From: Nitrosopumilus sp.
Lineage (GTDB): Archaea > Thermoproteota > Nitrososphaeria > Nitrososphaerales > Nitrosopumilaceae
Length of the DNA: 64,000 nt
Assembly: GCA_965249555.1 (NCBI GenBank)
Contig: OZ252243.1
Coordinates: 1,760,001-1,824,000 of the forward strand
Direction: 5' to 3'
The translations under genes were made by a program, and so were the position numbers. Positions 36,280 through 54,324 of this stretch are shown in pieces (positions within the stretch are counted from its first letter, which is position 1; every line of letters begins with the position of its first letter). The notes beneath the pieces were generated by a model. It saw only the letters and a list, made by a program, of their open reading frames with translations. It had not been told where the DNA came from and made no database searches.

Positions 36280-36522
36280 TCATAGTTTCCTTAATAATGT
36301 GGATCTGGGTTTGTCCGGCTCTATGTCTTCATGCATGTCCACGTTGCTGACAACCCTTGCCTTGTAGCTTAGCCATCTGTTTTGCATGTTGCGAAACTTA
36401 TGATTCCCATCAATTGGTTTTTCTGTCTCTTCAAATTTCTCACAATTCATAATGTATTTTCCAGAAACCCTAAACATCTCTGCAACACCTTTTCCTAGTG
36501 TCTCATCATCCAAATAATTCAT
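36280..36522 (-). pseudogene. C-terminal fragment of a class I SAM-methyltransferase-like gene
   Basis: NYLDDETLGKGVAEMFRVSGKYI resembles the post-motif-II region (L..l.e..RV.K); the SAM-binding N-terminus is absent. Confidence 0.5.
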
Positions 36523-37052
36523 CAGCCCACCCTTCCATTTCCAATCTTTACCTTGTCTATCTGAGTCACTGATTTTACCTCTGCAGCTGTTCCTGTCATG
36601 AATATATCATCTGCATTGTAAAGATCATCTCGTTCCAGACTGCTCTCAACAACAAAACCGCCGTTCTTCTCAATAATTTGAATAATACTGTCCTTGGTAA
36701 TTCCTGCCAATCCTCCTGCTGAAAGTGGAGGGGTTTGAATAATGTCATCTTTGACAATGAAAATATTCTCTGCACTGCCTTCTGCAACTTTGCCGTGATA
36801 ATTTAACATGATAGCCTCGTCGTATCCATTTTCTAGCGCTTCCATTCTTGCAAGAGCCGCATTTGCATAGTTTGATGCTGCTTGCACTGTTTTTATAATT
36901 GCATCAGTAATTGTTTCCTTTGAGAATTGCATCTTCATTGAGTATAATTTTGCAGATTTAAAAAATCTGTCAACATGTTCTGGCAGTCTAAAAATCGCCT
37001 ATCCCTTCAAAGTATTATAGCATCTGATCCCTTCAAAAACTGATGTCGAATA
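36522..37052 (-). pseudogene. ilvE: Branched-chain amino acid aminotransferase remnant
   Basis: YSTSVFEGIRCY, in-frame TAG at 36999-37001, FRLPEHVDRF, internal deletion (KTVQA joined to ASNYAN), EGSAENIF, GITKDS, FMTGTAAEV; truncated at both ends. Confidence 0.88.
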
Positions 37053-37053
37053 G

Positions 37054-37102
37054 GGCTCTGGTCAGTTCTGGTGATCTAGCATAGATAGTGGTCAGAAGTG
37101 AC
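37054..37102. mobile_element. Second, partial copy of the GGCTCTGGTCAG mini-element
   Basis: GGCTCTGGTCAGTTCTGGTGATCTAGCATAGATAGTGGTCAGAA closely matches the reverse complement of 33830-33885; abuts the ilvE 5' truncation. Confidence 0.6.
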
Positions 37103-37313
37103 AAATATGGATCTTCTCAAGATTGCCCGACCCCCTTGAAAAAACCCCTGGTCAGAAGTGATATAAAAAATTCTTGAATACTCCCATACGAAATCGTCTC
37201 CAACCCTACTGAGGACACTTACTAGCGTGCTTTGCTGAATCAGGACATCTCAGATATGCCTTGCATCTTATACTTTTGCTGTGTCAGTTCATGATTTTGT
37301 GTACGATACACTT

Positions 37314-38279
37314 TCAGAATTTGTTAGCATGTACCCGGATTATTGCAAGCATCCGGTCTTGCAGCTGCCACCTTTGTTTTCTTCTCTTTGCAATTCTGAA
37401 ATAGAATGATTCCATTCTTTCATCAAATCGTACTGTAGTATTTGCAGCCTCTACCATTGCGTTACGTAACCATGCAGAACCCCTCTTTGTTATTCCGCCT
37501 CCTCGGTGCACATCTGCATTCCTGTGCGATGGCGCAAGTCCTGCATATGAGACTAGTTTTTCTGCTGATGCAAATCTGCTGATGTCAACTATCTCTGAAA
37601 TTATTGTCAATGCCGTGACATAGTTTATTCCAGGAATGGTCATTAGTAGTCTTGTTTTCTCATCCTCATTACTGCAATCTTTATCTCAATTGTGTTGATC
37701 TGTTTTTGCGTCATATCTATGGTATCAAGATATGCATCCATTGCCATTCTATCAGATTAATTTCATGCAACCATCGTACTCCTTTCTGCGAGAATGTCTT
37801 TGTTGTAGGCTGGGTGTAATCATATTTTGCAAGTATTGCATAAATCATGTTTTTGTGTCTTGAGACACTTCGCACGCGATTCAGTCTGGTTCTTACCAGA
37901 CTGTATAGTCTCTATAGTATTTTTCTGGTACGAATGAGCTGTACACCATGTCTGCTCTTAGCAAGTCTGCCAATACGTCTGAATCAAGTTTGTCGTTTTT
38001 GAGCTTTGCCTGTACAATTATCTTGGTCTTTGCAGGATGTGCAAGAATTGTATCAATTCCATGGTCCTCTAGTGTGTCATGTAGTCTGATCCAATAGTTT
38101 GCAGTTGATTCGCACACTGCCTGTATGTCATTGCCATATGTCTTTTTGACGTGTTTGATAAAACCCATTATTCCATTTGTGGTATTATCAAAGCTTGTCT
38201 GCTCTAGCTTCTCTCTGGATTCCCGTTTTATTGTTGCAACACATTTCTTCTTGTGAATATTAATTCCTATGCTGATCAT
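37314..38279 (-). pseudogene. IS110 recombinase pseudogene
   Basis: GINIHK (first Asp changed to Asn), VCEST, KNDKLD; TIPGI...YAGLAP; several frameshifts; the Ser of RDSA is lost by a 3-bp deletion. Confidence 0.9.
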
Positions 38280-38309
38280 ACCATCACCTCCTTTTTGATC
38301 AAATTGCCT

Positions 38310-38465
38310 GATCTAGCGGAATACTCCCATTCACCATCTATGTGGTATTTTGTTTTCCGCTCACTTTGAGTTAGTCTGTCAAACGCCCTTGTACATGGCA
38401 ATATTCATTCAACTCTCAGGCCCAACAGTAGGTATACATCACAAGATATGAAAAAGATTTCGTAT
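38310..38465 (-). ncRNA. Predicted IS110 bridge RNA (copy 1)
   Basis: Two internal-loop hairpins (GAGTT/AACTC with inner GCC/GGC; GCGGAA/TTCCGC with inner ACCA/TGGT) whose loop strands match the target and donor junctions. Ends approximate. Confidence 0.75.
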
Positions 38466-38951
38466 AACGTCTATCAAGTCGAAATTTCCCAAAATATGTA
38501 CTGTATAGTTTTGGTGATCTGTATGGGGAAAGTTCAGCATGAAATTCAATTCAGAGAGAAGATTCACATCTCTATATTGTGCTAGGATCCCTTAACAGCA
38601 GTTGGCAAAGTCTGCATTGAGGGCTTTTTGCCAAAAGGGAGGGGGCATGGCAAAGCATCATGGAGTGAGCCCGGGCAAATTTTTACCATACGCCGAAGGT
38701 GGAATACAGAAACTAATTCATTTGATCCGTTGCAAGTGTATGGGGGTATGATGCCCAATCACCATTTTTAGGCATTGGCATTCCACTGTGAAAAATACGA
38801 TCAAAATTATGAGATCCCTTGAATCTCATTTTACAAAACTTTACACATATGCATATCTGAGCTATGCCCAAATTACTCACGATTGCCAAATTACAAGCTT
38901 AAAAAATCAACCTTTAAACCTTTTATAACTACAAATTATTTTTGATACAAT

Positions 38952-41900
38952 GTGAATAAAATGTTATTTAATGCGTTAGTGGGGGGGGGGGTTGTCCTGT
39001 TTGCCATATCACTTCTTGCAAGTGCTGAGGCTCAAGCCCCAATTGCACCTGTCCCTCCTGTAATTGAAGAAGGAGAAATCTTTTCGACAAACATTGAGAT
39101 TACATGGGGTGTGGTGGATGGTGCCACATCATACACAGTGTACAGAAACGGCGCTAACCGAGGAACTACTACTGATACATCATTCATTGATTATGGTTTA
39201 ACTCCTAATACAGAGTACACTTTTCGTGTCGTAGCACACAATAGTGCAGGCCAGACAGCAAACTCTGCTTTTTTTAAAGTATCTACCACATCTGCACCGA
39301 CCTCTTTTAGTGCCCCAGCACCAACTTATGCAGATACTCAGACGGCAATCGAGGACGGCACTATTAGTATTGAAAAGAATAATTCCAGAGACGATCAAAT
39401 AGATATATCTTTTGTACCGAAACAAGTCGGTGTATATTCTATTGAATATGGTGCTTTCAATACTGAAACTGTTAGTGTTAGTAGTGGTCAGACAGATATA
39501 CGTAAAGTTGTACCCCCAATAACGATAGGTTATGGTTTTGATCAAGATATCATCATTTCCTTTAGAGAAGGAACATCTGATCTAGTTGAAGTTGCAAGGG
39601 CACATGTAACGACTGTACCTACACCAACTCCTACACCTAGAGTAACAGATGTCACTTCGACAAGTATAACGATTGAATGGGATGCAGTGGCTGGTGCCGG
39701 ATACGATATCTTTAGAAATGGCGTGGAACAAATAACTATCACTGGTTCATCATACCATGATGATGAATTAGATCCCGAAACAACTTACACTTATACTATC
39801 AGACCAAATTACATAAACAATACTGTTGGGCCCACTTCTGCTCCATTGGTTGTAACCACCTTGGAATTACCACCTGCTACTCCAGCACTTGTACTGGGAG
39901 AAGTCACTGACACAAGTATAGCACTTTCATGGGGTGCAGTGGATAATGCCGACAGTTACACTTTGACCAGAATTGTTGCAGGCGGTAATATAGTAGTGGT
40001 ATCCAGCAATGTATTGACTGCCATTGATACTGGCCTGGCTCCTGCAACTGATTACAAGTATGTCATTGTGGCAACAAATACTGCCGGGACAAGTACTCCT
40101 TCTGCAGAGTTTGCAGCATCTACAACTGCAGCACCAATTGATACTACACCACCAGTAATCACAGTAACTCCAGAAGAAATCACTCTTGAACTAAACTCAC
40201 CTGCACCAACACTTCTTACTGGAGTCGAAACTGATGATGGCTCTGCAATTACTATATCCGGAACTGTTGATGTTACCACAGTAAACGATTACACTATCAC
40301 TTATTCCTCAACTGATGGTACAAACCCAGCTGTTGATAAAACCAGAATATACAAAGTAACTGATACCATACCACCAGTAATCACAGTAACTCCAGAAGAA
40401 ATAACTCTTGAACTAAACTCACCTGCACCAACACTTCTTACTGGAGTCGAAACTGATGATGGCTCTGCAATTACTATATCCGGAACTGTTGATGTTACCA
40501 CAGTAAACGATTACACTATCACTTATTCCTCAACTGATGGTACAAACCCAGCTGTTGATAAAACCAGAATATACAAAGTAACTGATACCATACCACCAGT
40601 AATCACAGTAACTCCAGAAGAAATAACTCTTGAACTAAACTCACCTGCACCAACACTTCTTACTGGAGTCGAAACTGATGATGGCTCTGCAATTACTATA
40701 TCCGGAACTGTTGATGTTACCACAGTAAACGATTACACTATCACTTATTCCTCAACTGATGGTACAAACCCAGCTGTTGATAAAACCAGAATATACAAAG
40801 TAACTGCAGCACCTGTCCCAATCCAGTTAAATACCATACAAATTAATCAGAATGCTAACGTTATAGATATATCATTTGTACCGCTTCTTGCCGGTACATT
40901 TGATATTTCATATGCTGGTTCAACCCCACAACCACAAACTATCGATTCGGCCCAAACAGGTACCGCTTTAGAGTTTTCGGTAACCCTCGATTCTGGTTTT
41001 GCCGGCAATGTCTGCATTGAATTTGATGGTGATGAGATTTCTTGCAGTACAATTCGGATTGAACCTGACGAACCCACACTTGTTCTCGGAGACGTTACTC
41101 ATGATACCATAGGGTTCACATGGAACTCTGTAAATAATGGCCACAATTATATTCTGACCAGAGTTATTGAGGGTACTGATAAAATAGTGGTAGAAGGCAT
41201 CAATGTACTTGCTGGCACTGATGATAACTTGGAACCTGAAACCGAGTACACATATGTAATTTCAGTGAGCACACCTGATGGTGACTTCAATGATGAATAT
41301 AGTCCGTTTTCTGTAACTACACTTGCAGCACCTGCTACTGAAACGCCGGCAATAGAGGCAAACTCTTTTGAGGTTACCAATCCGATAGATACAAACGCAT
41401 TACTTGTAGAGTTTGTAGCCTTAAAGGCAGGCACATTTACGATTACGGCAGGTGCGTTGACTGACACTGTTGATGTAACAGATACAGATGTAACAGATGC
41501 AGCAGTGAAAAGTAAACAGATAACAGTCAACCCTGAATTTGATGGCGATGTAATCCTCTCATTTGACGATGCGACAGTTGCAAGCACACCTGCATCTCTA
41601 CTTGCAATCAGGGCAGGCTCTTTTAGTTATACTGGAGATGCTGCTGGAGATGTAACTGTATCCTTTGTTCCGTTAAGGGCAGGCACATTTACAGTTGAGG
41701 CAGGTGATGCCAGCGATGACATAGTTGTTGGTACTGGCGATATAGGTAACACTGTATCATCCGATCCGCTATCCCTTGGCAATGGTTTTGATAGTACTAT
41801 TCTCATTTTATTGAATAATCATGTATATCTAAGGCCATCAGTATTGACTCTACCTGGCATCCCGACACTTGAGGTAGAAACCCCTACTCATAACAGTGTA

Positions 41901-43685
41901 ACGCTCTCATGGAATAGAATTGCCAGTGCAACAGGTTACGTACTGAGCAGAACTAGTGGCGGAGCAACAACTGAGATATCAGTCACTGGGATCTCATATG
42001 CTGATACCTTGGAACCTGAAACAACTTACATCTATTCCATAAGGACAGTGGCAGCAGCTGGAGACAGTGCCGCCTCTAATGTCGTGTCTGTAACTACACT
42101 TGCAGCACCAACTGATACAACTCCACCTGCCGCACCCGTACTTTCTGCAGGAACAACTACTGATACAACTATATCACTTTCATGGACTGCAGTGGATAAT
42201 GCCGACAGTTACACTCTGACCAGAATTGTTGATGGCATTAATGATGTTGAAGTGGCAACAGGCGATATATTGACTGCCACTGATACTGGCCTGTCTGCTG
42301 ATACAGATTACAAGTATACCATTACGGCAACAAATACTGCCGGGACAAGTGATCCTTCTGCCGAGTTTGATGCAAGGACTGATGCAGCCAATACAAACCC
42401 ATCACCTGCCGTGTACACTCTCAACGATACACCTCATGCTACTGACGGAGATAAAGTAGTTATAACCTTCACATCGTCACACACCGGTGATTTTACAATT
42501 GAATTTGATGGTGGTCGTACCATTGACTTTACAATTGATGATGCAGCCGTCCCATATATTCACACAGAAACAGTTGGGTATGATTATAATGGCAATATTA
42601 TCATTTCAATTGCCGGCGGTGCCGAGGTTGCAAGGGAATCTGTAACGACTGAACCTGAAAACCCAAAGAAAAAAGGTGGAGATTCTAATGAATGGAAAAC
42701 AAAGCCAACCTTTGGCAAACATTGGAATAATCAAGCAGTACAGCTAGTTGATGACGGCTTTGTCTTTAATGGCATGCCATTAACCATTACAAACAACTGG
42801 CACACTGACTTTAATATGACTAGCAGCATTATTGGTGATAACAATACAGTCCACATCAAAGGCTATGCAACAAATGGCCTAAAGTCCGTATCTCTATCCC
42901 TTGGAGTTCCAGAAGTTGGCCTGAAGACTAATGCAGAGTCCCACATTATAGTGAATGTAAATAGCAACTATACTAGTCCTGCAGGTTATGACATTGCAGA
43001 TATAGTCCATGAGCAAAAAGAGGGACTAGTAAATGAGGACATGACTAGCGCATCCATTGACAAAGTCAAATGTACATCATCAGATACTGCAGAGAGGTGC
43101 TTTGATGTTACCATATCATTTGTAATAATGGCACCATTATCCCATGAAGTATTGGCAATTAATGCAGTTGACAAACAACGTTACTCTACTACCACATATA
43201 TCAACGAAGGTGTAGAGTTTGTGGGAGAAGCATTACTTGCAGCAGCAACTCATGAGTTAAAACAAAAGCATGGCAACCAGAATCCGTTTGAGACCATATC
43301 ACTAACCCAGCAGGACAGACGTTACCAGGTCTGGGAGGACCAATATGGATACATATGGTCACAAAATGACTATGGCACCTGGTTGCAGATTACAAGACCT
43401 GATATGCAACAAAGAGATGATCTGCCAACAAGCGTAATGACTAGAATTCATTCAAACTTTGCAAATCTGGTAATTGATGAGCAGGATAGGGCAACCCTGA
43501 TCTTTGATAGTAAGGCAATTCAGGGAACCTTGGATGAATCATTCTCATATGATATGCCATTAAGACTGGACAGAGTATCAGATCCCGCATTGCTGGAATC
43601 ACTATCCATACAAGAGATGCTGGCCCAGGAGATGCTGTGTGACTGTATGATATATGATGACTCTGATCTTAGCTGGAATGACTAG
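38952..43685 (+). CDS. Giant secreted surface protein with fibronectin type III and Ig-like (DUF5011-like) repeats
   Basis: Signal peptide; several FN3 units (W..V.GA.SY.V...L.P.T.Y...V.A.N.AG); three DTxPPVIT Ig-like repeats; acidic, Thr-rich; non-repetitive C-terminal domain. Confidence 0.88.
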   Translation: MNKMLFNALVGGGVVLFAISLLASAEAQAPIAPVPPVIEEGEIFSTNIEITWGVVDGATSYTVYRNGANRGTTTDTSFIDYGLTPNTEYTFRVVAHNSAGQTANSAFFKVSTTSAPTSFSAPAPTYADTQTAIEDGTISIEKNNSRDDQIDISFVPKQVGVYSIEYGAFNTETVSVSSGQTDIRKVVPPITIGYGFDQDIIISFREGTSDLVEVARAHVTTVPTPTPTPRVTDVTSTSITIEWDAVAGAGYDIFRNGVEQITITGSSYHDDELDPETTYTYTIRPNYINNTVGPTSAPLVVTTLELPPATPALVLGEVTDTSIALSWGAVDNADSYTLTRIVAGGNIVVVSSNVLTAIDTGLAPATDYKYVIVATNTAGTSTPSAEFAASTTAAPIDTTPPVITVTPEEITLELNSPAPTLLTGVETDDGSAITISGTVDVTTVNDYTITYSSTDGTNPAVDKTRIYKVTDTIPPVITVTPEEITLELNSPAPTLLTGVETDDGSAITISGTVDVTTVNDYTITYSSTDGTNPAVDKTRIYKVTDTIPPVITVTPEEITLELNSPAPTLLTGVETDDGSAITISGTVDVTTVNDYTITYSSTDGTNPAVDKTRIYKVTAAPVPIQLNTIQINQNANVIDISFVPLLAGTFDISYAGSTPQPQTIDSAQTGTALEFSVTLDSGFAGNVCIEFDGDEISCSTIRIEPDEPTLVLGDVTHDTIGFTWNSVNNGHNYILTRVIEGTDKIVVEGINVLAGTDDNLEPETEYTYVISVSTPDGDFNDEYSPFSVTTLAAPATETPAIEANSFEVTNPIDTNALLVEFVALKAGTFTITAGALTDTVDVTDTDVTDAAVKSKQITVNPEFDGDVILSFDDATVASTPASLLAIRAGSFSYTGDAAGDVTVSFVPLRAGTFTVEAGDASDDIVVGTGDIGNTVSSDPLSLGNGFDSTILILLNNHVYLRPSVLTLPGIPTLEVETPTHNSVTLSWNRIASATGYVLSRTSGGATTEISVTGISYADTLEPETTYIYSIRTVAAAGDSAASNVVSVTTLAAPTDTTPPAAPVLSAGTTTDTTISLSWTAVDNADSYTLTRIVDGINDVEVATGDILTATDTGLSADTDYKYTITATNTAGTSDPSAEFDARTDAANTNPSPAVYTLNDTPHATDGDKVVITFTSSHTGDFTIEFDGGRTIDFTIDDAAVPYIHTETVGYDYNGNIIISIAGGAEVARESVTTEPENPKKKGGDSNEWKTKPTFGKHWNNQAVQLVDDGFVFNGMPLTITNNWHTDFNMTSSIIGDNNTVHIKGYATNGLKSVSLSLGVPEVGLKTNAESHIIVNVNSNYTSPAGYDIADIVHEQKEGLVNEDMTSASIDKVKCTSSDTAERCFDVTISFVIMAPLSHEVLAINAVDKQRYSTTTYINEGVEFVGEALLAAATHELKQKHGNQNPFETISLTQQDRRYQVWEDQYGYIWSQNDYGTWLQITRPDMQQRDDLPTSVMTRIHSNFANLVIDEQDRATLIFDSKAIQGTLDESFSYDMPLRLDRVSDPALLESLSIQEMLAQEMLCDCMIYDDSDLSWND
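38981..38991 (+). repeat. G11 homopolymer within the signal-peptide codons
   Basis: Eleven consecutive G in an AT-rich genome; the gene is currently in frame. Confidence 0.9.
40149..40806 (+). repeat. Three near-identical 222-bp tandem repeats (74-aa Ig-like domain)
   Basis: Units start at 40149, 40371 and 40593; only one synonymous difference seen (ATC/ATA). Confidence 0.95.
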
Positions 43686-43918: not shown

Positions 43919-43998
43919 GGCATATCTGAGATGTCCTGATTCAGCAAAGCACGCTAGGAGGTGTCCTCAGTAGGGTTGGAGACGATTTCGTATGGGAG
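43919..43998 (+). mobile_element. Solo IS110 end fragment (inverted relative to the two full copies)
   Basis: 80 bp matching the reverse complement of 37181-37260 and 52956-53035, ending exactly at the AG (CT) core. Confidence 0.85.
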
Positions 43999-52900: not shown

Positions 52901-53088
52901 GTCTTTCTAAAAAGTGGTAAAATCGGGTTGTACTTAAACTATTGTAAAATTGATTCTCCCATACGAAATCATCTCCAACCCTACTGAGGACACCTCCTAG
53001 CGTGCTTTGCTGAATCAGGACATCTCAGATATGCCTTGCATCTTATACTTTCGTTGTGTCATTTCATGATTTTGTGTACGATACACTT

Positions 53089-54057
53089 TCAGAATTTGTT
53101 AGCATGTACCCGGATTATTACAAGCATCCGGTCTTGCAGCTGCCACCTTTGTTTTCTTCTCTTTGCAATTCTGAAATAGAATGATTCCATTCTTTCATCA
53201 AATCGTACTGTAGTATTTGCAGCCTCTACCATTGCGTTACGTAACCATGCAGAACCCCTCTTTGTTATTCCGCCTCCCCTGTGCACATCTGCACTATCCC
53301 TGTGCGATGGTGCAAGTCCTGCATATGAGACTAGTTTTTCTGCTGTTGCAAATCTGCTGATGTCAACTATCTCTGAAATTATTGTCAATGCCGTGACATA
53401 GTTTATTCCAGGAATGGTCATTAGTAGTCTTGTTTTCTCATCCTCATTACTGCAATCTTTATCTCAATTGTGTTGATCTGTTTTTGCGTCATATCTATGG
53501 TATCAAGATATGCATCCATTGCCATTCTATCAGATTAATTTCATGCAACCATCGTACTCCTTTCTGCGAGAATGTCTTTGTTGTAGGCTGGGTGTAATCA
53601 TATTTTGCAAGTATTGCATAAATCATGTTTTTGTGTCTTGAGACACTTCGCACGCGATTCAGTCTGGTTCTTACCAGACTGTATAGTCTCTATAGTATTT
53701 TTCTGGTACGAATGAGCTGTACACCATGTCTGCTCTTAGCAAGTCTGCCAATACGTCTGAATCAAGTTTGTCGTTTTTTAGCTTTGCCTGTGCAATTATC
53801 TTGGTCTTTGCAGGATGTGCAAGAATTGTATCAATTCCATGGTCCTCTAGTGTGTCATGTAGTCTGATCCAATAGTTTGCAGTTGACTCGCATACTGCCT
53901 GTATGTCATTGCCATATGTCTTTTTGACGTGTTTGATAAAACCCATTATTCCATTTGTGGTATTATCAAAGCTTGTCTGCTCTAGCTTCTCTCTGGATTC
54001 CCGTTTTATTGTTGCAACACATTTCTTCTTGTGAACATCAATTCCTATGCTGATCAT
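53089..54057 (-). pseudogene. IS110 recombinase pseudogene
   Basis: GIDVHK, VCEST, KNDKLD and RDSA intact, but the same frameshifts as copy 1. Confidence 0.9.
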
Positions 54058-54087
54058 ATTATCACCTCCTTTTTGATCAAATTGCCT

Positions 54088-54243
54088 GATCTAGCGGAAT
54101 GCTCCCATTCACCATCTATGTGGTATTTTGTTTTCCGCTCACTTTGAGTTAGTCTGTTGGACGCCCTTATACATGGCAGTAACCATTCAACTCTCAGGCC
54201 CAACAGTAGGTATACATCACAAGATATGAAAAAGATTTCGTAT
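54088..54243 (-). ncRNA. Predicted IS110 bridge RNA (copy 2, different target guides)
   Basis: Same scaffold as copy 1, with substitutions concentrated in the target-loop strands (54154-54161, 54178-54185). Ends approximate. Confidence 0.7.
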
Positions 54244-54324
54244 AACGTCTGTCAAGTTGACAATGCTTTGTTTCACAATTTTCCCCTGTAGTGCCGAGAC
54301 TTGGAAAATATCTTAGCAATATGA

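Follow-up and report, generated by a model that had tools for sequence, protein, structure and literature searches.

A decayed IS110-family element of a Nitrosopumilaceae archaeon and its putative upstream bridge RNA

The element and its insertion site

The DNA considered here is a 64,000-nt stretch of contig OZ252243.1 from Nitrosopumilus sp. (the window), whose minus strand holds, at positions 37183-38472, an IS110-family element of 1290 bp; its host is an archaeon of the Nitrosopumilaceae. This length includes one AG core, counted at the left end, and a second AG (CT on the plus strand) lies in the flank at 37181-37182. From left to right, the element comprises a non-coding left end of 193 nt, a broken recombinase gene, and a right end of about 130 nt beyond the stop of the last open reading frame (ORF) fragment. 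The left end is the main subject of this work, as the putative source of a bridge RNA whose loops would read both the target and the donor DNA.

The boundaries of the element were placed by comparison of its copies. A blastn search of the host's own 2.23-Mb genome returned 61 pieces of the element, including 8 full-length copies, 26 left ends, and 36 right ends. Every one of the left ends starts with AGA[C/T]GTTATAC, and AG follows 34 of the 36 right ends, whose sequence is ..TTTCGTATGGG or close to it. The left-flank pattern has six matches in the genome, three of them occupied by the element and three of them empty, where the sequence is ..CGACTTGAT-AG-TATTCAAGAA.. and the core AG occurs once. 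There is thus one AG in an empty site and an AG on both sides of a filled one, which is the behavior of site-specific insertion at a 2-nt core with nothing else duplicated. Clearly, these ends are not guesswork, since 26 left ends, 36 right ends, and three empty paralogous sites fix them. An earlier first-pass annotation of the window had placed CT at 37181-82 and 38471-72 of the plus strand and had reconstructed the unoccupied target from the two flanks; the three uninterrupted sites and the consistent ends therefore confirm what it had observed of the element, namely the CT/AG core, the ends, and the target.

Just inside the ends is a perfect 10-bp subterminal inverted repeat, read as ATACGAAATC on the left (38456..38465) and GATTTCGTAT on the right (37186-37195). 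The left repeat is preceded by a 7-bp extension, AGACGTT (38466-38472), while the right repeat, as in the right ends elsewhere in the genome, is followed by a 3-bp extension, GGG (37183-37185), so that the right repeat and its extension span 37183..37195. The repeat is kept in orthologues, where its two halves covary, as in the pairs CCATGTGT/ACACATGG and ATATCAAAT/ATTTGATAT. The insertion point is the middle of a non-coding, MITE-like (miniature inverted-repeat transposable element-like) sequence, termed repeat Z, that is about 265 bp long and occurs about 17 times in the genome. A blastn comparison of an empty copy with the genome placed the right half of repeat Z at 37053..37182 and the left half at approximately 38473-38608.

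The recombinase gene and its decay

All features within the element are on the minus strand. A Shine-Dalgarno-like motif (GGAGGUGAU, 38283..38291) ends 3 nt 5' of an ATG (38279-38277) and is kept in at least 90% of 22 aligned orthologues. The coding region that follows occurs as three ORF fragments. The first (37893..38279, 128 amino acids) contains a DEDD/RuvC-like domain, DEDD_Tnp_IS110 (PF01548, E = 5.8e-15), and the third (37314..37643, 109 amino acids) contains Transposase_20 (PF02371, E = 1.5e-22). Between them is a fragment of 52 amino acids in a different frame (37717..37875), recognized from the list of ORFs by comparison with the 291-residue frame of a sister copy, L002. An N-terminal DEDD_Tnp_IS110 domain with a C-terminal Transposase_20 domain is the hallmark of the IS110 family, and both are present.

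Membership of the family is also evident from intact relatives. With NF033542, the "IS110 family RNA-guided transposase" model, an intact orthologue (L075) scored 243.9 bits and the L002 frame 204.5 bits, against a cut-off of 140. The intact orthologue aligns to IS621 across the catalytic serine motif, and a match to the IS621 transposase in the PDB was found at E = 4e-14. A tblastn search against plasmids gave no named insertion sequence and returned only unnamed "IS110 family transposase" matches of at most 38% identity.

The copy in the window is a pseudogene, decayed and non-autonomous. Compared with the L002 frame and with intact orthologues, its gene has at least two frame breaks. The first catalytic aspartate has become asparagine (GINIHK where others read GIDVHK), and the serine codon that aligns with the catalytic serine of IS621 is absent (HRN-ADV against HRDSADV in L002), so neither an intact frame nor the catalytic residues are retained; orthologues such as L075 keep both GIDVHK and ..HRNSGE... 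Nor is any of the eight full-length copies in the genome intact. Their longest stop-free frames run from 105 to 309 amino acids, and the best frame of this element in the genome is the 291-residue frame of L002.

Structure of the upstream RNA

The predicted core of the bridge RNA (38304..38427) consists of a closing stem, a target-binding hairpin, and a donor-binding hairpin, and it scores 145.8 bits (E = 1e-36) with a covariance model, R1, built from an alignment of 22 orthologues. The minimum free energy (MFE) fold of the sense strand has the same form, with two internal-loop hairpins inside a closing stem (-36.5 kcal/mol). Among 22 orthologues, 94.2% of the cells of a 26-pair structure are paired, compared with 30-44% when the partners are slid by 1-3 columns, and nine of the 26 pairs show compensatory changes on both sides. 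None of 500 shuffles reached either the paired percentage or the covariation score. The two internal-loop hairpins that the first-pass annotation had drawn at the upstream end are thus borne out, both by the MFE fold and by compensatory change. Three G.U pairs are retained in 20-22 of the 22 sequences, and because of them the recombinase-sense strand can be taken as the strand that is folded and transcribed. Folding energy decides nothing (z = -1.51 for the antisense strand and -1.23 for the sense strand); it is the comparison among copies and relatives, rather than energy, that makes the structure more than chance.

The model finds 25 places in the host's own genome, of which the window copy is the best. 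Of 151 genomes that sampled the class, 9 gave matches, and all of these belong to a single family (Nitrosopumilaceae, going by named relatives); by group, these fell in 8 of 80 genomes within the host's own family and 0 of 70 elsewhere in the class. A search of Rfam with positions 36500-39200 of the window, at E up to 1, gave no family, the one hit being a chance snoRNA match in the flank (20.5 bits, where the gathering score is 60).

Guides of the window copy

Both sides of both internal loops resemble DNA at the junctions of the element. In the target loop, the 5' side (UGAAUAUU, 38400..38407) is complementary to the core and right flank read in the recombinase sense (AG-TATTCA); the core G would form a U.G pair. 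The 3' side (UUUGAC-AG-AC, 38374..38383) has the same sequence as the left flank and core, the 3' target guide proper being UUUGACAG at 38383-38376. In the donor loop, the 3' side (AUGGG-AG-UA, 38322..38330) has the same sequence as the right end and core. The positions given by the first-pass annotation for the two target guides (38407-38400 and 38383-38376) and for AUGGGAG (38330-38324) followed by UA were all correct. It had reported a left donor guide that did not match the left donor; the guide is in fact AAAACA (38351..38356), on the 5' side of the donor loop, which agrees at 4 of 6 positions with the reverse complement of left-end positions 4-9 (ATAACG) and covaries with the left end in relatives. 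The AAA(U) that follows it faces the core region and is unpaired. Judged by sequence, then, the loops of the RNA could pair with both strands of the target and both strands of the donor.

The last two nucleotides of each loop's 3' side are candidate handshake guides. The AC of the target loop equals left-end positions 3-4, and the UA of the donor loop equals the first two nucleotides of the window copy's right flank.

The RNA had also been proposed to predict its own insertion site. For the window copy's site, TTGAT-AG-TATTCA, the right guide does so contiguously, with the U.G pair at the core, but the left guide agrees at only 4 of 5 positions, and the exact fit is elsewhere, at TTGAC-AG-ATTCA, which lies inside the Transposase_20 coding region of a second IS110-family element, ISb. 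In turn, the guides of L002 (UGAAUACU and UUUGAUAG), which is inserted in another copy of repeat Z, match the window copy's site without a mismatch.

ISb is 1335 bp long and is found outside the window at G000:C1:193196-194530 and in at least nine more near-full copies. It has open frames of 373 amino acids, a left non-coding end of only about 140 nt, and ends (..ACTATATGTGAAT / ATTCACATGGATA..) that differ from those of the present element. Its intact protein raises the question of whether the window copy's RNA might still be used in trans by another recombinase. The scaffold is intact, with the best score in the genome, its guides fit a real site in ISb exactly, and a 373-residue protein is at hand. 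Against such use, the cognate recombinase is broken in all eight full-length copies, the ISb protein shares only about 37% identity with it, ISb has different ends, and the copies are 93-98% alike, indicating no recent activity. We consider continued use in trans very improbable.

Guide variants across the host genome

Among 14 copies in the host's own genome, 9 of 16 guide positions vary, compared with 19 of 177 positions in the rest of the non-coding end (Fisher p = 4.7e-5). For four of the five 3' guides present in the genome, a left flank matching at 5 of 5 positions exists among the 26 left ends, and the guide variants, taken as a set, correspond to classes of occupied site. In addition to repeat Z, the conserved Transposase_20 codons of ISb form one such class, with seven right-end junctions and one left-end junction of this element located there. 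Another class, TTACAC-AG-TTA[C/T]AA, is the 3' end of a DDE transposase gene (PF01609).

A DDE insertion sequence (PF01609) of about 1150 bp also occurs within the present element, where it cuts the bridge RNA gene at left-end position 138 (L125, G000:C1:546900-548900, with about 40 further blast matches). It explains seven of eight checked solo left-end fragments of about 138 bp, while the eighth, at 2018220, runs into unrelated sequence. In the other direction, the present element occupies the 3' end of this insertion sequence's transposase gene, and the two are nested in each other.

The window itself contains a second full-length copy on the minus strand at 52958-54250, 97.6% identical to the first and also frameshifted. 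Its target guides are different (UGGUUACU / UCCAACAG), and both fit its own flanks poorly. A solo right-end fragment (78 bp, 97% identical), one of several in the genome, is on the plus strand at 43919-43996.

Guides and flanks across relatives

Further evidence that the loops are guides comes from relatives. A search with the recombinase gave orthologues of 52-58% identity in a genome of the same genus (G002) and, further afield, 34 loci of named metagenome-assembled genomes (Nitrosopumilus, Nitrosopumilaceae, Nitrosotenuis, Nitrososphaera, and one Bathyarchaeia). The upstream regions of the orthologues share a common scaffold and have divergent loops. For tests of the guides, 59 matches to the covariance model were aligned, and the ends of each element were placed by conserved terminal motifs, independently of the guides. 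The test of the 3' target guide used 55 of the 59 rows, which gave 43 unique pairs; three loci without an identifiable left end (L063, L064, and L096) and one with a 9-nt loop (L113) were left out. One locus, L070, was scored with the first of its two tandem right ends (2 of 5), and this count was kept, though the second would score higher. In L070 (approximately 2516-2940), the right end occurs twice, 418 bp apart, and the sequence past the first copy resembles the element's own left flank.

The 3' target guide matches the left flank at a mean of 4.14 of 5 positions, compared with 1.90 when flanks are permuted (0 of 20000 permutations as high). Perfect matches occur in 22 of the 43 unique pairs, ten more agree at 4 of 5, and the guides are of 29 distinct sequences. 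The 5' target guide is complementary to the right flank at 4.08 of 5 positions against 2.44 permuted (25 unique pairs, 0 of 20000), with all three of its registers allowed, in the permutations as well. At the donor, the left donor guide matches the reverse complement of left-end positions 4-9 at 4.43 of 6 positions against 3.28 permuted (23 unique pairs, 0 of 20000). This guide is made up of the last stem base and five loop bases, and it stops 3 nt short of the core; the variants AUGGCA, AUAGCA, and AUAGUG each agree with their own left end at 6 of 6. The bases after it, which are mostly AAA in relatives, face the core region and cannot pair. The 3' side of the donor loop reads AUGGG-AG wherever the right end is ATGGG, and in L071 it reads AUGGC-UG along with a right end of ATGGC and a core of TG. 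Comparison of guides with flanks through a covariance model of homologous ends was a check that the first-pass annotation had itself suggested, and the loops do covary with both flanks and ends.

The two target-guide tests were also repeated with other genomes only and with one locus from an unpublished genome (L103, G164) dropped. The 3' guide then scored 4.36 against 1.78 (33 pairs) and the 5' guide 4.26 against 2.31 (19 pairs), with 0 of 10000 permutations as high in either case; the repeat covered these two tests and not the donor-guide test. Support for the handshake reading, in which the annotation had likened the nucleotides after the core to known handshake guides, is weak. Of the two donor-loop nucleotides after AG, the first agrees with flank position 1 in 8 of 18 unique cases (reached in 150 of 10000 permutations), and the second agrees in 10 of 18 (reached in 803 of 10000). 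In the target loop, the AC pair is nearly invariant and thus gives no covariation signal.

These results also bear on a plainer account of the upstream region, in which it is merely a structured leader of the recombinase mRNA, controlling translation or stability, and any likeness to the flanks is due to chance or to flank sequence copied in. A Shine-Dalgarno-like motif and start codon do lie directly downstream, and the closing stem adjoins both of them. A leader of this kind would not, however, be expected to carry 29 distinct 3' guides that track the left flanks of relatives, nor to have both loop sides and both element ends tracked independently, with variation concentrated in the sides of the loops while the stems are kept. 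A simple mRNA leader is thus most improbable.

Since 13 of the 59 RNA matches precede an open frame of 341-365 amino acids, the element family is alive elsewhere. Four of these 13 open-frame relatives are in a single genome, G152, with three different guide pairs among them. Of the open-frame copies in G152, the three with a clean left junction match their left flank at 5 of 5, and L117 matches at only 3 of 5. In all, G152 holds five copies of its orthologue (L101, L108, L114, L117, and L122) with four guide pairs, and the four open frames are of 358 amino acids. Four of the five copies match their own left flank at 5 of 5; L117, the one at 3 of 5, lies behind a 3-nt TAG duplication. The G152 orthologue is the best candidate for a currently active member.

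Proposed mechanism and its weak points

The element is best explained as a decayed copy of an IS110-family RNA-guided insertion sequence with an upstream bridge RNA whose loops read target and donor, and we put the probability of this at roughly 0.9. The interpretation given in the first-pass annotation is therefore supported, with three corrections. The mechanism that follows is proposed for live relatives, as the window copy is dead. The element would leave as a circle that joins ..TATGGG to AG-ACGTTAT.., and this junction would be the donor site. Transcription of the left non-coding end, in the same sense as the recombinase gene, would yield an RNA of about 125-150 nt with two internal-loop hairpins that a shared stem closes. 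The first loop would read the target, its 5' side pairing with the sense strand of the core and right flank and its 3' side with the antisense strand of the left flank and core. The second loop would read the donor, with its 3' side corresponding to the right end and core and its 5' side to left-end positions 4-9, where the core region would be left unpaired. The DEDD/Ser recombinase would then exchange strands at the AG (CT) dinucleotide.

Several observations weigh against this interpretation. Within the host's own genome, the guides of copies fit their own flanks no better than they fit the flanks of other copies: ten pairs scored 3.4 against 3.24 (3549 of 10000 permutations as high), and six pairs scored 3.5 against 3.5. 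This comparison, which the first-pass annotation had also suggested, was not significant. The fold energy of the window copy is no better than that of shuffled sequences (z = -1.23, with 19 of 200 shuffles as good), and the number of "further pair types" among the orthologues, 18 compared with 21.9 in shuffles, goes in the wrong direction. In the window copy itself, the left donor guide agrees at only 4 of 6 positions. Nor is there a single register for the 5' target guide in relatives: of 25 pairs, 15 have the flank match beginning 3 nt from the stem, seven at 2 nt, and three at 4 nt. The relatives are kin, so the permutation counts overstate their independence. Finally, we infer transcription of the RNA, its ends and promoter, the circle, and catalysis, and for transcription and the circle junction this too counts against the model.

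The mismatch within the host's own genome may reflect RNA acting in trans on identical donor ends, followed by later rearrangement among old copies.

Comparison with known IS110 and IS1111 systems

Statements on published systems below follow the searched text of the papers cited. The element shares much with IS621 and ISCro4, including the protein family (NF033542), an RNA upstream of the gene in the left end, and two internal loops with one strand read by each loop side. They also have in common a CT/AG core, a 5' guide that ends in CU, and a 3' guide with AG and 2 further nt. The differences lie in how the RNA is oriented on the element. The strands are swapped here, such that the 3' side equals the left flank and core while the 5' side complements the right flank; the repeats are 10 bp rather than 2-3 bp; and the left donor guide ends 3 nt before the core. 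Compared with IS621, moreover, the host is archaeal, and protein likeness is mostly limited to the C-terminal domain.

The element could still be imagined as a canonical IS110-group (IS621-type) insertion sequence, with the apparent inversion an artifact of misplaced ends or a wrong strand. In keeping with this, the RNA is upstream of the recombinase gene, and its two simple internal loops, with a 5' guide ending in CU and a 3' guide of AG and 2 nt, are as described for IS621 (PMC11208158). In IS621-type elements, the donor is described as the right end-left end junction in the element's sense. The ends, however, are fixed by empty sites, and the opposite strand is excluded by the conserved G.U pairs. 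The 3' side is identical to the left flank and core in 22 of the 43 unique pairs, and complementarity to the right flank is found on the 5' side; the order of guides is the reverse of the IS621/ISEc21 rule. The 10-bp subterminal repeats, too, are not the 2-3 bp of the IS110 group. The present evidence contradicts a canonical IS621-type element, which we regard as extremely unlikely. The IS621 geometry that had been recognized in the first reading of the window consequently holds within the RNA and is mirrored relative to the element. Likewise, the donor had been noted as inverted relative to IS621; the order is indeed reversed, but this is no anomaly, as it is the published IS1111-type order (PMC11187229).

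In IS1111-type elements, the order of the two guide matches is reported to be reversed, with the top-strand complement 5' of the bottom-strand match (PMC11187229). Siddiquee et al. also described subterminal inverted repeats with 7-bp left and 3-bp right extensions in these elements and an RNA region downstream of the gene, with few exceptions (PMC11187229). Durrant et al. gave repeat lengths of 7-17 bp for IS1111 and 2-3 bp for the IS110 group, and they located the RNAs of IS1111 at the right end and noted that the donor site is often a multi-loop (PMC11208160). The IS1111-group elements with a seekRNA (ISEc11, ISKpn4, and ISPa11; Siddiquee et al. 2024) thus resemble the present element in their subterminal repeats, their 7/3-bp extensions, the placing of the top-strand complement 5' of the bottom-strand match, and natural reprogramming of guides. 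They differ in that their RNA is downstream of the transposase gene and here it is upstream, and many IS1111 RNAs have multi-loop donor binding where the present RNA has a simple internal loop (PMC11208160). In ISMtsp17, a relative of IS1111, the transposase falls in the IS1111 cluster and a non-coding region lies upstream of the gene, a likeness that extends to the one sentence in which it is described (PMC11187229). ISEc21, an IS110-family element, likewise has its target in conserved codons of another insertion sequence's transposase gene, of the IS3 family in that case (PMC11187229), but it has the IS110-type guide order and a bacterial host.

By these features, the element has the IS110 group's RNA in a long left end upstream of the gene and lacks its guide order and its 2-3-bp repeat; it has the IS1111 group's repeat length (10 bp), 7/3-bp extensions, and guide order and lacks its downstream RNA. 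It belongs in the IS110 family at large. Of the defining features, one is missing for the IS1111 group and two for the IS110 group, and a mixed variant is the best description, because IS1111 order, repeats, and extensions are combined with an upstream two-loop RNA. This assignment is made by ends, guide order, and RNA position.

A full-text search of the literature for IS110 or bridge RNA together with thaumarchaeal names found no paper on such an element, although supplements, which it did not cover, may hold archaeal or upstream-RNA IS1111 cases. A preprint on IS110 and Nop5 reports 662 archaeal IS110 recombinases, and RNAs are not treated in its searched text. Tentatively, and with the odds somewhat against it, the Nitrosopumilaceae clade could be a third, undescribed IS110-family architecture, in which IS1111-type ends and polarity go with a left-end two-loop RNA. 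In this architecture, the left donor guide would be set back by 3 nt, the donor core would face a conserved AAA and go unpaired on that side, and the 5' target guide would have a fixed place in the loop, with pairing of the core optional. If that were true, the element could represent an intermediate in the RNA's proposed move from one element end to the other, and the guide variants of a single genome would be aimed at the transposase genes of rival insertion sequences (IS110-family and DDE) and at a MITE-like repeat.

Neighboring sequence

Next to the element, the plus strand at 38952-43685 holds an open frame of 1577 amino acids. Its N terminus has a hydrophobic segment, Thr/Pro-rich linkers are numerous, and a stretch of about 70 amino acids recurs as three identical internal repeats. 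The protein looks like a large surface protein. Outside the window, at G000:C1:640090-643540, blast matches to a stretch near G000:1884670 revealed dozens of repeats of about 117-141 nt with 74-83% identity, which may form a long tandem array.

Significance

The window copy is a fossil and, apart from marking a repeat, has no consequence for function. Bridge and seek RNAs have been worked out in bacterial elements, and the same logic can be read here in an archaeal clade, with dozens of natural pairs of guide and target. How the IS110 group is related to the IS1111 group is a question on which the mix of features bears. For guide design, testable rules are offered by the variable register and by the donor core that stays unpaired. 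To our knowledge, ammonia-oxidizing archaea are without genetic tools, and intact relatives of the element, such as the four G152 copies with three guide pairs, are candidates for a native programmable recombinase in these organisms.

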